Positions 37,579-52,664 of a DNA stretch of 64,000 nucleotides are shown here, one piece after another (position 1 is the first letter of the stretch; each line of letters opens with the position of its first letter). A program made the position numbers and the translations under genes. The notes under the pieces are model-generated. The model was not told the origin of the DNA, made no database searches, and was given only the letters and a program-made list of their open reading frames with translations. This stretch comes from Escherichia phage ECO103 4-12-1, in the sequence record OR844650; one strand, 5' to 3'.

Positions 37579-38691
37579 TTAGAACATTTGTTTGATTGCT
37601 TCGTAACGAAGTTCACAAACAAAATCACGAATTTCTGACGTTTCAAGTTCACCATCTTTGACCATTTGCTGAATATCAGGCAATTCAACATCAGTATAAC
37701 GATCATAAACTTTAATAATTAGATCTTCAAGTTCTAAATCAATTTCTTTTCGCAAAATGAAGTATTCCAAAACTTTATAAAGGAATTCTTCACCTCCGTT
37801 ATTTTTAATATTCATATCCAATAAAATATTACCCATTTCAATAGGGGTCTTTTTACGGAATGTTTTGATATCATCACGGAAACGTTTGATATAATTACTA
37901 AATTTAACATACTTAACTGGAACTTTAATAGCACCGTTAAGTACTGAATCATTATTTACTTCTTCATTTTCAAGAAGAATAGACCACAGAAAATATGGTT
38001 TATATACATCCGTACAGTTCTCTGCAATATAATCAATAAGGTCTAAATTCTTTTTGGTCAAAGATGTATTAAACACCTTTTCGTAATAACCAAATTTACT
38101 TAGCGTCTTAAGGAACTTTGCAGGCTTTTCTTCGGAAAATGCTTTTTCGAATTCCACAAACACACGGTCAGGAACAAGATGATTTAGCTCACCACTATTG
38201 ACCATTCCAATAGCGAGTTCCTCAGTGCTTTCATGGATAGTAAAGTCAGAATAACGAGTAGCAAATCGAGCAAGACGTAACACACGTAATGGATCTTCTT
38301 TAAAATGGTCAGACACATGACGTAGTACCTTGTTCTTGATATCAGCTTTACCACCGTATGGGTCAATGTGAATTTGTAGTACTGGATCATACGAAATTGC
38401 ATTTATTGTTAGGTCACGGCGATACAAATCTTGTTCGAGTGTTACGCCTTTTGTATCCACTTCAAAGCCACCATATCCAGTACCAGTTTTACGCTCAGTA
38501 CGGGCTAATGCGTGTTCATTACCTTCTGGACTTAGATATACTGGGAAATCCTTACCTACTTGCTTATAGCCAATACTTTGCAAGTACTTAAGATCAGATT
38601 CGGATGCACCAACAATGACATAATCTTTGTCTTTTGCACGAAGACCCATTAAACGGTCACGGACGTAACCACCAACCAAATACTTTTTCAT
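37579..38691 (-). CDS. cca: tRNA nucleotidyltransferase (CCA-adding enzyme) family protein
   Basis: N-terminal GGYVRD motif and DxD (DKDY) of class II CCA/poly(A) polymerases; GGGGGAA RBS. Confidence 0.8.
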   Translation of the reverse strand: MKKYLVGGYVRDRLMGLRAKDKDYVIVGASESDLKYLQSIGYKQVGKDFPVYLSPEGNEHALARTERKTGTGYGGFEVDTKGVTLEQDLYRRDLTINAISYDPVLQIHIDPYGGKADIKNKVLRHVSDHFKEDPLRVLRLARFATRYSDFTIHESTEELAIGMVNSGELNHLVPDRVFVEFEKAFSEEKPAKFLKTLSKFGYYEKVFNTSLTKKNLDLIDYIAENCTDVYKPYFLWSILLENEEVNNDSVLNGAIKVPVKYVKFSNYIKRFRDDIKTFRKKTPIEMGNILLDMNIKNNGGEEFLYKVLEYFILRKEIDLELEDLIIKVYDRYTDVELPDIQQMVKDGELETSEIRDFVCELRYEAIKQMF

Positions 38692-38692
38692 G

Positions 38693-38815
38693 TTATTCCC
38701 CCATCAACCAATCACGTAGACGTTCCCAGAAGCCTTTTGGTTGGTATTCTGGGTATTCATATTCATCAGTGCCTTGCTCGGAAACACCCCAATCTTCTTC
38801 TAACATAGCAATCAT
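38693..38815 (-). CDS. small acidic protein (40 aa), not in ORF track
   Basis: ATG with GGAGG RBS; stop lies 1 nt before the cca start; MIAMLEEDWGVSEQGTDEYEYPEYQPKGFWERLRDWLMGE. Confidence 0.35.
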   Translation of the reverse strand: MIAMLEEDWGVSEQGTDEYEYPEYQPKGFWERLRDWLMGE

Positions 38816-38826
38816 AATGCCTCCAA

Positions 38827-39249
38827 TTAAATTAATCTGTCACGTAGACGGTCGTAATATTTTTCGTGTATAGCTAGTATACACTGATATGCAGAATAGT
38901 CAATGCCAAATGTATCATCAATGAACATGTACTGATCAAGTGCTTCTGGCCCATTATCATCAACTGGTAATGTCCCTTCTTTTTTTGACAGGGTGTGCCA
39001 CATCAACTCACTTTCAATATGGTGAGTTGCGTATGTCAATTCAATCTTACTTTTTCTTAGTAAAATTAACAATTCATCATTGTCGTCGAGTGCATTACGA
39101 AATTTAATACGAACAGTACCCTGAAAATTATTAGTGTACATAACACGATGTTGATTATATGTAACTAAACCACGTCTTTCAGTACTGATTTCGTGTTCAG
39201 CAAAGTACTTTAACGTTTCATTAAATTTTGGAATTTTAGTAACGTCCAA
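38827..39249 (-). CDS. hypothetical protein (paralog pair member)
   Basis: Shares FIDDTFGIDY..YQ.I...+.Y block with the 39236 gene. Confidence 0.55.
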   Translation of the reverse strand: MDVTKIPKFNETLKYFAEHEISTERRGLVTYNQHRVMYTNNFQGTVRIKFRNALDDNDELLILLRKSKIELTYATHHIESELMWHTLSKKEGTLPVDDNGPEALDQYMFIDDTFGIDYSAYQCILAIHEKYYDRLRDRLI

Positions 39250-39652
39250 TCACATAATCCTCATAAAGTTTGTATACCCTCATTATACTCTGATATGTAT
39301 CAAAGTCAATGCCAAAGGTATCATCAATGAACTGATATTGCAAAAACTCTTCCTCTGTAGCAGCAATAGGAAGAGTCCCGTTTCGTTGTTCTGTTGATTG
39401 AACATCCTCAATATACATCAACACTATACTTTCATCCAGATTTATATCTATCATAAAAACATCTTCACTATAAAATATGTTATATGTACGGATGAAGAGA
39501 TTTCCTGTTCTATCATAACTTGACACGTGTGTTTCATAATACATTTTATCTAAACTAAAGAACAAACCTGTACTATCTGGCTTTTTAGTATTTTTTAATT
39601 TAATTTCGATAGCATCAATCATAGGTTTAATATCAAACTTTTTCATAGACAA
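39236..39652 (-). CDS. hypothetical protein (paralog pair member)
   Basis: Paralog of the 38827 gene. Confidence 0.55.
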   Translation of the reverse strand: MSMKKFDIKPMIDAIEIKLKNTKKPDSTGLFFSLDKMYYETHVSSYDRTGNLFIRTYNIFYSEDVFMIDINLDESIVLMYIEDVQSTEQRNGTLPIAATEEEFLQYQFIDDTFGIDFDTYQSIMRVYKLYEDYVIGRY

Positions 39653-39828
39653 ATCACATACTTATTACTATGTGGATCGTAACAATATGAATCATTTACC
39701 TTAATACCAGGCTTAAGTTCAATAGTTGTTCCTGTTTCTGTACTGGGTTCTGCATCACAATAAATCATCACACCAACCCCGACTAGTAAGGATATGATAC
39801 ATATAACTATACATATTGTATATTCCAT
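39643..39828 (-). CDS. small membrane protein
   Basis: 61 aa with one hydrophobic helix (ICIVICIISLLVGVGVMIY). Confidence 0.45.
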   Translation of the reverse strand: MEYTICIVICIISLLVGVGVMIYCDAEPSTETGTTIELKPGIKVNDSYCYDPHSNKYVICL

Positions 39829-39841
39829 AAATTTATCTCCA

Positions 39842-50773: not shown

Positions 50774-50826
50774 AATAATATCTCCTATAGTTGATGATAT
50801 TATTTAGAGTATACAATTGTATAGTT

Positions 50827-51246
50827 TTACAACATTTTTTGAATATGTTCTACTAGTTCATACAGCTTAGTTTCATTATTCTCGAACTTTTCATCAACTT
50901 CAACATTGAATTTTTCTTCTAGTTCCATTACCATTTCAATCCAATCAAGCCAATCAAAATTGAATTTTTCTTCGACTTCCAATTTAGTAAGATTGAAGTT
51001 CGCTGATACATCATTCTCTGATGTATCACAGTAACGAGTAGTGATGAATTTGACAATTTCTTTTTCAACATCGTTTAATTCACGAGTTTGATATTCGGGC
51101 TGAAGATACCACCATTCTCCCTTATTAATAGATTCCAATTCTTGTTTGATTTCATGCATTACTTTATAACGGTCAGTACTTTTATCAATAGAATTTACTT
51201 CTTGGTTCAATACATGTAGTGCATTTTTAATACGTTCATTTAACAT
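50827..51246 (-). CDS. hypothetical protein
   Basis: 139-aa ORF with AAGGTGA RBS. Confidence 0.5.
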   Translation of the reverse strand: MLNERIKNALHVLNQEVNSIDKSTDRYKVMHEIKQELESINKGEWWYLQPEYQTRELNDVEKEIVKFITTRYCDTSENDVSANFNLTKLEVEEKFNFDWLDWIEMVMELEEKFNVEVDEKFENNETKLYELVEHIQKML

Positions 51247-51257
51247 TTTATCACCTT

Positions 51258-51289
51258 ATAAAAAAAGAGAACTCCATATGAAGTTCTCT
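51258..51289 (-). terminator. intrinsic terminator
   Basis: AGAGAACT-loop-AGTTCTCT hairpin followed on - strand by T7, just upstream of the next RBS. Confidence 0.5.
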
Positions 51290-51290
51290 G

Positions 51291-51319
51291 ATTATACATA
51301 ATTACTTTTTCTATGTCAA
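51291..51319 (-). promoter_or_regulatory. consensus sigma70-type promoter
   Basis: - strand reads TTGACA-N17-TATAAT exactly. Confidence 0.6.
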
Positions 51320-51431
51320 GTTATAAATCACGGAAACGATTTGGTGTGCCAGACTTAATCCTTGCGTTAATTTATATTGAGTATTTATCGAGTATAATGG
51401 CATTTTTAGTACCATTATACACTTGTATATG

Positions 51432-52664
51432 TTACTTATACCATTGCATTTCTCTAATATCAATGATAATTTTTGATGCTAACTTGATGTTTGGTTTTTT
51501 AGGAAGTACTGATTTCTTATATAGAACATCACGAATGTATTGTACTTTATCATCGAAATATTCTAATACTTCTTCATACTTCCATTTACCATTACGAATA
51601 TCCATCAACATTTGTGCATCTGGTCGTTTAACTTGAATAATTCCACTTTGTAATGCTTCTTCTGCACTATTCAAAAGTCGGATTGTGTGCATAGCATGTT
51701 TACAATCGTATCCGTGTTGTGATTCTAAAATAGCACGTTTGGCATTACGATTTTCTTTCCATTTATGATAACTTTTCCTATTCTCACTATTTTCCTGATA
51801 TTCTTTTTCGTTAAATTTGACAATTAGTTCTGGTTTGGTTTTCAACTCTTCAGTACTACGCTCTTTAGAAAAATAACGCAATGATCCATCACCGTTGATA
51901 GTGCTTTCATTCGGATTTTTAATAATCGCAAAAATGTTTTCTCCGTAATGAATTAGTTCATAACCATTATTAAAATTCAATAAATTGAAATCACGATCAA
52001 GAATTTTTTCAGTAGTGTAGTTATGCACTAATCTTACGAAATGATATTGCTTTAATGGATTTTTCGAAACTAACTGTAATGATGTATCACGCATATATTT
52101 TTCAAAATCAATCTTTTTAGCATTAAATGGATGTAAGTTGGATGTATCTAAACGTTCAACAAGATACTGTGGGAATGAATCATACATCCACGCAAGAACC
52201 TCATCGGCAGGGTGTTCTTCTAAAATCTCATTTAATCGTTTTTCAGCAATACGCTCTTTATCCATCCAACCGTGATGATTTGTCATACGCTTAATCTGAT
52301 TATATGCATATCCAGTATATGAAAATGCAATCTTAGAACTAAGAAGTTTTTGGTTAAATGAACGAAGATAGTCATAAATCTCAGTACTTTCCACAATGTG
52401 TTCAGGTTCAACCCAAAGTGATTCAAGAATATTAGGGTTAGCTTCAGTGTATAATTTTAAATACTGATTCAACTCATAGAATTTAGTATCTTCTTCGCTT
52501 TTGTCAGCTACCTCTTTGACCTTATAGAAGGGTGTAAGAATAAATTCTTTATTAGCAAGAAAAATACCACGATAATCAGTATCACTTTCCGGTGTACTGG
52601 TTCCGTAGGCTTGTGACCCAGCCAAGTGTTTCACTATTGTTTGTTCAATATATTGGTTATTCAT
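51432..52664 (-). CDS. Pol-beta-type nucleotidyltransferase (RlaP-like)
   Basis: N-terminal GSQAYGTSTPESDTDYRG fits the G[SG]x9-13DxD nucleotidyltransferase signature; 410 aa. Confidence 0.65.
   Translation of the reverse strand: MNNQYIEQTIVKHLAGSQAYGTSTPESDTDYRGIFLANKEFILTPFYKVKEVADKSEEDTKFYELNQYLKLYTEANPNILESLWVEPEHIVESTEIYDYLRSFNQKLLSSKIAFSYTGYAYNQIKRMTNHHGWMDKERIAEKRLNEILEEHPADEVLAWMYDSFPQYLVERLDTSNLHPFNAKKIDFEKYMRDTSLQLVSKNPLKQYHFVRLVHNYTTEKILDRDFNLLNFNNGYELIHYGENIFAIIKNPNESTINGDGSLRYFSKERSTEELKTKPELIVKFNEKEYQENSENRKSYHKWKENRNAKRAILESQHGYDCKHAMHTIRLLNSAEEALQSGIIQVKRPDAQMLMDIRNGKWKYEEVLEYFDDKVQYIRDVLYKKSVLPKKPNIKLASKIIIDIREMQWYK

Follow-up and report, generated by a model that had tools for sequence, protein, structure and literature searches.

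Candidate tRNA-maturation and RNA-end-repair genes in a conserved block of an Asteriusvirus jumbo coliphage

Do four genes scattered over about 15 kb of a coliphage genome form a kit against host defenses that cut tRNAs or shut down translation? An earlier note raised this for positions 37579-52664 of a 64,000-nucleotide stretch of Escherichia phage ECO103 4-12-1 (OR844650), the whole of which is called the window here. The genes it named are all present on the minus strand, and both the list of open reading frames (ORFs) and domain searches bear out their identities:

37579..38691, minus strand: class II CCA-adding tRNA nucleotidyltransferase (Cca), 370 aa, with intact head and neck and a degenerate C-terminal region
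40291..40623, minus strand: short HPF/RaiA-family ribosome-associated protein homolog (HPF), 110 aa, with an acidic C-terminal tail; Pfam PF02482
41735..42145, minus strand: stand-alone 2H phosphoesterase of the 2H-SAK family (2H), 136 aa, with two H-x-S/T motifs, H57-V-S59 and H127-I-T129
51432..52664, minus strand: RlaP-like nucleotidyltransferase; Pfam RlaP PF10127, 6e-16

On balance, and by a narrow judgment, the four genes are best read as separate, individually conserved members of a genome-wide toolkit of Asteriusvirus for tRNA maturation and RNA-end repair; the substrates of the enzymes, their cooperation and any counter-defense purpose are what we infer from the evidence below.

The window is DNA of an Asteriusvirus jumbo coliphage, a Rak2-like jumbo myovirus. 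A 4.6-kb query from the region is 99.6% identical to vB_Eco_slurp01 (slurp01) and aligns with 28 further jumbo phage records across 80% or more of its length, the matching phages having genomes of 310-386 kb; the relatives for which taxonomy was retrieved, slurp01 and 121Q, belong to the genus Asteriusvirus, and the window corresponds to approximately 172.6-236.6 kb of slurp01 in reverse orientation. GenBank records of near-identical phages already contain these genes. Gene order was compared among 121Q, Pectobacterium phage CBB (Mimasvirus) and Klebsiella phage KP13-7 (Alcyoneusvirus).

The CCA enzyme, the phage tRNAs and the 2H protein

The N-terminal half of the phage Cca retains everything expected of a CCA-adding enzyme. 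Pfam recognizes the PolyA_pol head (PF01743, 4e-18) and the RNA-binding domain (PF12627, 4e-8); residues 1-207, comprising the catalytic head and neck, are 51% identical to E. coli Cca (E 8e-65), and the motifs GGYVRD, DxD, RRDLTINA and EDPLRVLR are kept. Motif A and the metal carboxylates (G7-G8-Y-V-R11-D12, D21-K-D23) are the same in E. coli Cca and in two phage orthologs, and motifs B-D and the flexible loop are conserved (R91-R-D-L-T-I-N97, E132-D-P-L-R136, E66-R-K..G-Y73). The NCBIfam model of the E. coli multifunctional CCA protein is matched over residues 1-207 of 409 only, and the best NCBIfam matches, all of them CCA-adding equivalogs, stay under their full-length cut-offs because the C-terminus differs; phrog_2244 matches over the full length. 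Pfam finds no HD match in Cca: relative to E. coli Cca, the first histidine region is lost in a 21-residue deletion, CHDLGK has changed to CTDVYK, with TD in place of the HD dipeptide, and histidine is missing altogether from the last 163 residues (208-370). The HD phosphohydrolase domain has been lost from the phage Cca, as it has in CBB and KP13-7, and several GenBank records over-annotate the gene as 'multifunctional CCA protein', since the HD motifs are deleted or substituted. In the multifunctional E. coli enzyme, with which the phage Cca shares all nucleotidyltransferase motifs, it is this domain that acts as 2',3'-cyclic phosphodiesterase, 2'-nucleotidase and phosphatase.

The note had assigned the enzymes to host tRNAs on the ground that the phage has no tRNA genes. 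This holds for the window, in which ARAGORN finds none, but not for the phage: each of slurp01 and 121Q has seven tRNA genes elsewhere in its genome, the number also reported for slurp01 and Sharanji (PMC5114366, PMC11895373), and with them the argument for host substrates falls. Four of the seven genes encode CCA (Ser-UGA, Arg-UCU, Met, Asn); the other three, in slurp01 and 121Q alike, do not (Gly-UCC, Ser-ACU, Thr-UGU) and end in the discriminator, a C and then a run of A (discriminator-C-AAAA). As three phage tRNAs lack an encoded CCA, the phage Cca has an ordinary substrate, and its gene is explained without invoking defense. In the mechanism that we propose, the HD-less Cca would complete the 3' ends of these three tRNAs and would also rebuild nibbled CCA ends, on phage and host tRNAs alike.

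Two of the phage tRNA genes are unusual in other respects. The tRNA-Ser has the anticodon ACT, with A at the wobble position (slurp01 L015, 2635-2726; 121Q L003, 25464-25555), which is unusual for bacteria; and the tRNA-Leu(TAA) annotated in 121Q (L003, 23585-23666) receives no ARAGORN call and looks degenerate or mis-annotated, while slurp01 has a normal tRNA-Arg(TCT) at the same position (L015, 908-984).

The 2H gene lies within approximately 3 kb of the HD-less cca, and wherever a Cca gene was found beside a 2H gene (in the Rak2-like clade and at loci L045 and L046), its product is HD-less. The HD domain is retained in the Cca of Cronobacter phage GAP31 (26.4 bits), and its motifs (HHPEGD...CHDLGK...HGHE) are kept in nine of the ten complete Cca genes that precede an RlaP-like gene by 1.3-3.3 kb in other viral contigs; at these RlaP-adjacent loci there is no 2H gene within 10 kb. 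The 2H protein itself carries two H-x-[ST]-x motifs on an internally duplicated fold, the criterion for the superfamily. It scores 25.8 bits against the 2H-SAK model PF22547, slightly under the cut-off of 27, while the CBB ortholog reaches 35.1 and precomputed PF22547 annotation is present in 24 of 29 database homologs; T4-like phages yielded no 2H-SAK homolog.

Its closest solved structures are Acb1 and MHV ns2, viral phosphodiesterases that destroy immune signals, and tRNA repair is therefore not the sole plausible role of the 2H protein. It could be an Acb1/ns2-like phosphodiesterase that destroys cyclic or 2'-5' oligonucleotide signals, possibly together with the macro and Nudix proteins, the genes then forming a set that blocks signaling and clears ADP-ribose; a DarG-like macro gene and a Nudix gene do occur in the same block, and the literature weighs both roles for phage 2H domains. 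We nevertheless consider this quite unlikely. Acb1, the 2H-fold anti-CBASS enzyme of T4-like phages, is 14% identical to the 2H protein without profile-detectable similarity, and a profile of the 2H family, searched against PDB sequences, returns nothing meaningful and does not detect Acb1; by Pfam assignment the family is 2H-SAK, and in BFVD the best match of the 2H model that bears a name is likewise a 2H-SAK protein, little else being gained from that search.

The genomic company of the family also differs from that of Acb1, its neighbors being tRNA arrays, the CCA enzyme and RNA ligase. tRNA genes occur in 17 of 27 distant 2H loci, within 1 kb in 12, and the 2H genes in these arrays, almost without exception on the same strand, in some cases lie 34-67 nt from a tRNA; the tRNA-bearing loci amount to approximately 11 of 18 independent groups (independence judged by eye), and in a comparison set of 80 RlaP-like loci none contains a tRNA gene. 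In CBB, and likewise in other relatives of the clade outside Asteriusvirus, an RNA ligase (PF09414 plus OB domain in CBB) and a DUF2828/DUF7788 protein, which we take to be Ro/TROVE-like, are encoded at a distance of 0.2-2.5 kb from 2H. In one member of the family, the 2H protein is joined to a YqeY domain, a domain of tRNA-binding type. Array context and YqeY fusion favor a tRNA-related substrate.

In the toolkit as we read it, the 2H protein would open 2',3'-cyclic-phosphate RNA ends or trim 3' trailers, and would thus supply in trans the end-cleaning performed by the HD domain in E. coli Cca and in most other phage Cca examined. A stricter version, in which the HD-less Cca and the nearby 2H protein are the split halves of a bifunctional bacterial Cca, seems unlikely; in it, tRNA 3' ends that are over-long or carry a 2',3'-cyclic phosphate would first be cleaned in trans by the 2H protein, after which Cca would rebuild the CCA. 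If true, the split enzyme would be a dedicated acceptor-end repair against 3'-end toxins, distinct from the anticodon-loop route of T4.

The RlaP-like nucleotidyltransferase and the healing-and-sealing pair

The fourth gene encodes a nucleotidyltransferase of the phage branch of RlaP. It scores 59.2 bits against PF10127, well over the cut-off of 23, matching model positions 24-144 of 249; it falls into phrog_388 (2e-76), the PHROG of T4 NrdC.11, and can be aligned with NrdC.11 almost end to end (hhalign, residues 8-376, probability 97.8%, E 1e-12). The catalytic signature hG[GS]...DxD and a third acidic residue are in place, with G16, S17, D28, D30 and D59 invariant in 31 homologs. The AF2 model (pLDDT 91.7) has helices at 286-409, a region that hhalign aligns with NrdC.11; in a Foldseek search of a PDB set lacking an RlaP structure it matches minimal nucleotidyltransferases only (ANT(4'), HalB, MNT), and weakly (E at least 0.03). 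The Pseudomonas RlaP enzymes are of the same Pfam family (PF10127), likewise with an N-terminal Pol-beta domain bearing three acidic catalytic residues; to their C-terminal helical domain the helices of the phage model are a candidate counterpart. The phage enzyme differs in belonging to the NrdC.11-like branch and in having an extra inserted region. Compared with NrdC.11 itself, it carries approximately 75 extra residues.

The chemistry of the family is known from a preprint of December 2025 (10.64898/2025.12.29.696909), according to which the Pseudomonas enzymes add one or two nucleoside monophosphates to RNA 3'-OH ends and RlaP restores the aminoacylation of over-trimmed tRNA in vitro; the same work places T4 NrdC.11 in the family. 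By analogy, the phage enzyme would add one or two nucleotides to the 3'-OH of broken RNAs that are missing bases. The Pseudomonas genes (PfRlaP, PaRlaP) stand in RtcB-RtcA operons, whereas the phage gene adjoins no RNA ligase: none is found within 10 kb of it, and Rnl1 and Pnkp lie approximately 35-40 kb off in 121Q and slurp01. Among 67 distant RlaP loci, an Rnl1-like match is nearby in one and a CCA enzyme in 11, the distance between RlaP and CCA genes being 1.3-3.3 kb in these 11 other viral contigs and 2.1 kb in GAP31.

Two observations concern the surroundings of the RlaP-like gene. In GAP31 (Vequintavirinae; L138, 10647-11135) a 162-aa 'hydrolase' is encoded between the Cca and RlaP-like genes, with a sub-threshold match to PTH2, the peptidyl-tRNA hydrolase (18.9 bits, cut-off 23). 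In 121Q, approximately 3.4 kb of tail-protein and tail-fiber genes (gp509-gp507) separate the ACP-like gene from the nucleotidyltransferase gene, where the window has only a 186-nt spacer (51246-51432); this spacer contains a perfect TTGACA-17-TATAAT promoter (51319-51291) and a terminator-like hairpin (51289-51266).

The phage also encodes, outside the window, the pair of enzymes that canonically heals and seals RNA in T4. In 121Q, gp438 combines RNA_lig_T4_1 (PF09511) with T4_Rnl1_C and is a T4-type Rnl1, and gp443 combines a kinase domain with HAD_PNKP (2e-43) and is a Pnkp; the pair is 99.1% identical in slurp01, where it lies at 144379-147550, approximately 25 kb beyond the window end, and it is present in all 34 matching records, which comprise Escherichia and Salmonella phages. 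Pnkp and Rnl1 could then heal and seal the RNAs extended by the RlaP-like enzyme, as in the T4 repair of damage by the anticodon nuclease PrrC. The parts correspond to those of T4, with the same Rnl1 C-terminal domain, the Pnkp domains and an NrdC.11 homolog, the difference being that the ligase and kinase genes are here outside the window. T4 is not known to encode a Cca and depends on that of the host.

The RefSeq annotation of 121Q further lists IF3, a 3'-5' exoribonuclease, Sir2 and additional Nudix genes; in the whole of it, no RtcB or KptA is annotated. A small protein with the cytidine/deoxycytidylate deaminase fold, gp490, is possibly the gene named as a tRNA adenosine deaminase for Sharanji (PMC11895373).

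Gene order, rival accounts and the place of HPF

What holds these genes together is an old gene order. The succession RlaP ... ACP-like - Rz - ... Dps-like ... 2H - lysozyme - (HPF) - CCA - Nudix - glutaredoxin ... macro is collinear in the three genera, and the RlaP-like, CCA and 2H proteins are 57-74% identical to the copies of CBB and KP13-7. The dispersed set of the note is a gene order conserved across three genera and not a tight cluster, the four genes being separated by approximately 30 unrelated small ORFs, a lysozyme gene, a spanin gene and an HNH gene. The genes thus sit in an old, partly eroded syntenic accessory block, which is not an operon and was not assembled for one task. In Asteriusvirus, the ligase and DUF2828/DUF7788 genes that adjoin 2H in CBB, and the YqeY-like gene that follows the glutaredoxin gene in the CBB-type arrangement, are absent at the block position.

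The block invites a plainer account, in which Cca matures the CCA-less tRNAs of the phage, the other three genes have nothing to do with it, and the set is a remnant of ancestral gene order without a role in defense. Much of the above agrees with this account: the three tRNA genes without CCA, the collinearity of the whole block including its lysozyme, spanin, Dps-like and ACP-like genes, the many unrelated ORFs in between and the remoteness of Rnl1 and Pnkp. CCA enzymes are moreover common in phages, with 494 phage records carrying one, beside 1666 for RlaP-like genes, 75 for the present 2H family and 36 for the present version of HPF. We consider it unlikely all the same, as it leaves aside that the distribution of RlaP mirrors that of RNA ligases in jumbo phages (PMC7824862), that the linkage of RlaP to CCA genes recurs in the 11 other viral contigs and in GAP31, and that the 2H family is tied to tRNA arrays and, in phages of the CBB/GAP32 type, to RNA ligase and the DUF2828 protein.

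The toolkit reading agrees with an existing model. Iyer et al. (Viruses 2021, PMC7824862) describe RNA repair in jumbo phages as built from ATP-grasp RNA ligases, Pnkp-type kinase/phosphatases, 2H and cRec phosphoesterases and macro/Nudix proteins; among the nucleotidyltransferases that restore ends, RlaP is the most prevalent and the CCA-adding enzyme comes next, alongside phage tRNAs, and the distribution of RlaP follows that of the ligases closely. That study is a survey, in which the gene order of the block, the loss of HD from Cca and the placement of 2H in tRNA arrays are not described, and HPF is not mentioned. The idea of an RNA-repair kit thus fits the published scheme, the biochemistry of RlaP, the presence of Rnl1 and Pnkp and the association of 2H with tRNA arrays, and fails in its inclusion of HPF and in its host-tRNA premise; it reasonably arrives again at a model already in print, from a premise that is wrong in part. 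What may be new are the 2H relatives inside tRNA arrays and the HD loss of Cca with 2H nearby. A literature search for experimental work on phage Cca as counter-defense and on the function of NrdC.11 returned nothing relevant beyond the RlaP preprint.

Several points weigh against a common toolkit. Over a span of 15 kb the genes are interspersed with unrelated ORFs, and the partners Rnl1 and Pnkp lie tens of kb away; the linkage may reflect nothing more than inherited gene order. A Cca is also encoded by E. coli itself, and the phage copy is hence not strictly required. The tRNA islands of large phages hold many small unrelated accessory genes, so that adjacency to tRNAs is no proof of function, and CCA is encoded by 81 of the 112 tRNAs in the arrays that carry a 2H gene. 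The Cca of locus L094 is HD-less, yet has no 2H gene within 10 kb; the relation between HD loss and 2H proximity is suggestive, but not clean. T4 Pnkp resolves cyclic phosphates itself, and 2H is therefore not needed for anticodon-loop repair. Separately, the idea that 2H serves CCA-less tRNAs was tried and rejected in view of the share of array tRNAs that encode CCA.

The remaining points against a common toolkit all concern HPF. The gene is genuine in kind: its product matches Ribosomal_S30AE (PF02482) at 3e-10, with 41 bits over a cut-off of 23.7, and its best PDB match is T. thermophilus HPF (5e-7). It stays, however, under the cut-offs of the equivalog models (TIGR00741, 36.3 vs 40.9; PRK10470 for HPF, 23.2 vs 125; PRK10324 for RaiA, 19.3 vs 158), and it is 29% identical to E. 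coli HPF, 25% to RaiA and 19% to the copy at the same syntenic position in CBB. It is the most diverged of the annotated block genes, with 84% identity to the 121Q copy where the others have 96-100%; it is truncated or split in the Salmonella phages SD-1, SD-2 and SD-6, and absent from the syntenic position in KP13-7, the sole Alcyoneusvirus examined. HPF is the least stable member of the block, and the pattern points to rapid change or decay.

Other phage homologs have been reported in GAP32 and in rV5-like phages (Mizuno et al. 2019, PMC6375957). Like the present one, these are short proteins of large enterobacterial myoviruses with the S30AE domain only, and the CBB copy is annotated as similar to that of GAP32; the present version, unlike the rV5 and GAP32 forms, is confined to Asteriusvirus-like phages and one Erwinia phage. 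In rV5-like phages HPF is linked to neither CCA nor RlaP, and the rV5 gene has its own annotated sigma-70 promoter. HPF has no demonstrable link to the other three genes, and it should be taken out of the repair kit.

It is a substantial possibility, if somewhat short of probable, that HPF is an independent factor of host takeover or ribosome protection, which parks or shields ribosomes or competes with the host factors RMF, HPF and RaiA. The variability of the gene, its absence in KP13-7 and its independent position and promoter in rV5 agree with this, and competition with host hibernation factors was in fact proposed by Mizuno et al. (PMC6375957); the same study found that rV5 HPF, the one phage HPF put to such a test, did not co-purify with salt-washed ribosomes and left 100S formation unchanged, results which speak both against such a factor and against a place for HPF in the toolkit. 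The phage HPF would probably bind the decoding center of the 30S subunit, and is not demonstrably part of a repair pathway.

Neighboring genes, expression signals and meaning

Two further conserved genes of the block may be relevant here:

37069..37470, minus strand: Nudix hydrolase, directly downstream of cca; Pfam NUDIX 1e-12
35762..36238, minus strand: macro-domain protein, DarG-like, of the Appr-1''-p-processing type; phrog_335 1e-45

The order CCA-Nudix-glutaredoxin is common to the three genera, CBB and KP13-7 included, and it is possible that the Nudix hydrolase belongs to the RNA-repair set. The macro protein has as its best NCBIfam match DarG, the antitoxin glycohydrolase (4e-8, far under the model's own cut-off), with Pfam Macro matching weakly at 0.009; it is 57-63% identical to the CBB and KP13-7 copies and thus a conserved member of the block in all three genera. 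It may belong to ADP-ribose metabolism rather than to tRNA repair, and could counter ADP-ribosylation of DNA or RNA. A Pfam scan of 16 further block ORFs found no additional RNA-related domain, only DUF7325 being significant.

Two groups of small ORFs look like paralogous families, one with the shared motif FIDDTFGID..Y (38827-39249, 39236-39652, 39842-40237) and one that begins MK..DLA.LL..P..E.YH (45094-45678, 46414-47061). They occupy gaps that the annotated genes leave, and no counterpart of them could be detected in CBB; two ORFs of the first family and one of the second were scanned against Pfam without a match. A 119-aa ORF at 46048-46407 has no counterpart at the 121Q, CBB and KP13-7 loci, although its neighbors are all found in 121Q. 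The HNH endonuclease ORF (49481-50137) overlaps the upstream ORF (50094-50402) by 44 nt if the earliest possible start codon is taken; translation probably begins further in, since the 121Q annotation starts later (203 aa).

The note had described the block as early genes, and early expression of the four genes is not established. Of the strongest sigma-70-like sites, those matching the consensus at 11 or more of 12 positions, 14 lie on the minus (coding) strand and none on the plus strand, where approximately four would be expected on both strands together, but no such site lies directly upstream of any of the four genes. The total count of sigma-70 promoters in the region equals that expected from shuffling (97 vs 95), the strand bias being confined to the strongest sites, and the block runs on into the neck and tail-sheath genes on the same strand. 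By far the densest promoter cluster of the window lies elsewhere, with six near-consensus sigma-70-like sites (11-12 of 12 positions) within 1.2 kb at 21600-22800, on the minus strand.

Host systems that cut tRNAs are a major anti-phage defense, and the countermeasures of phages decide their host range; such countermeasures also matter for those jumbo phages that are considered for therapy. The 2H family merits a direct test, as its placement in tRNA arrays speaks for a tRNA substrate but its structure is akin to that of enzymes degrading immune signals, and the most testable remaining point is the relationship between the 2H protein and Cca.

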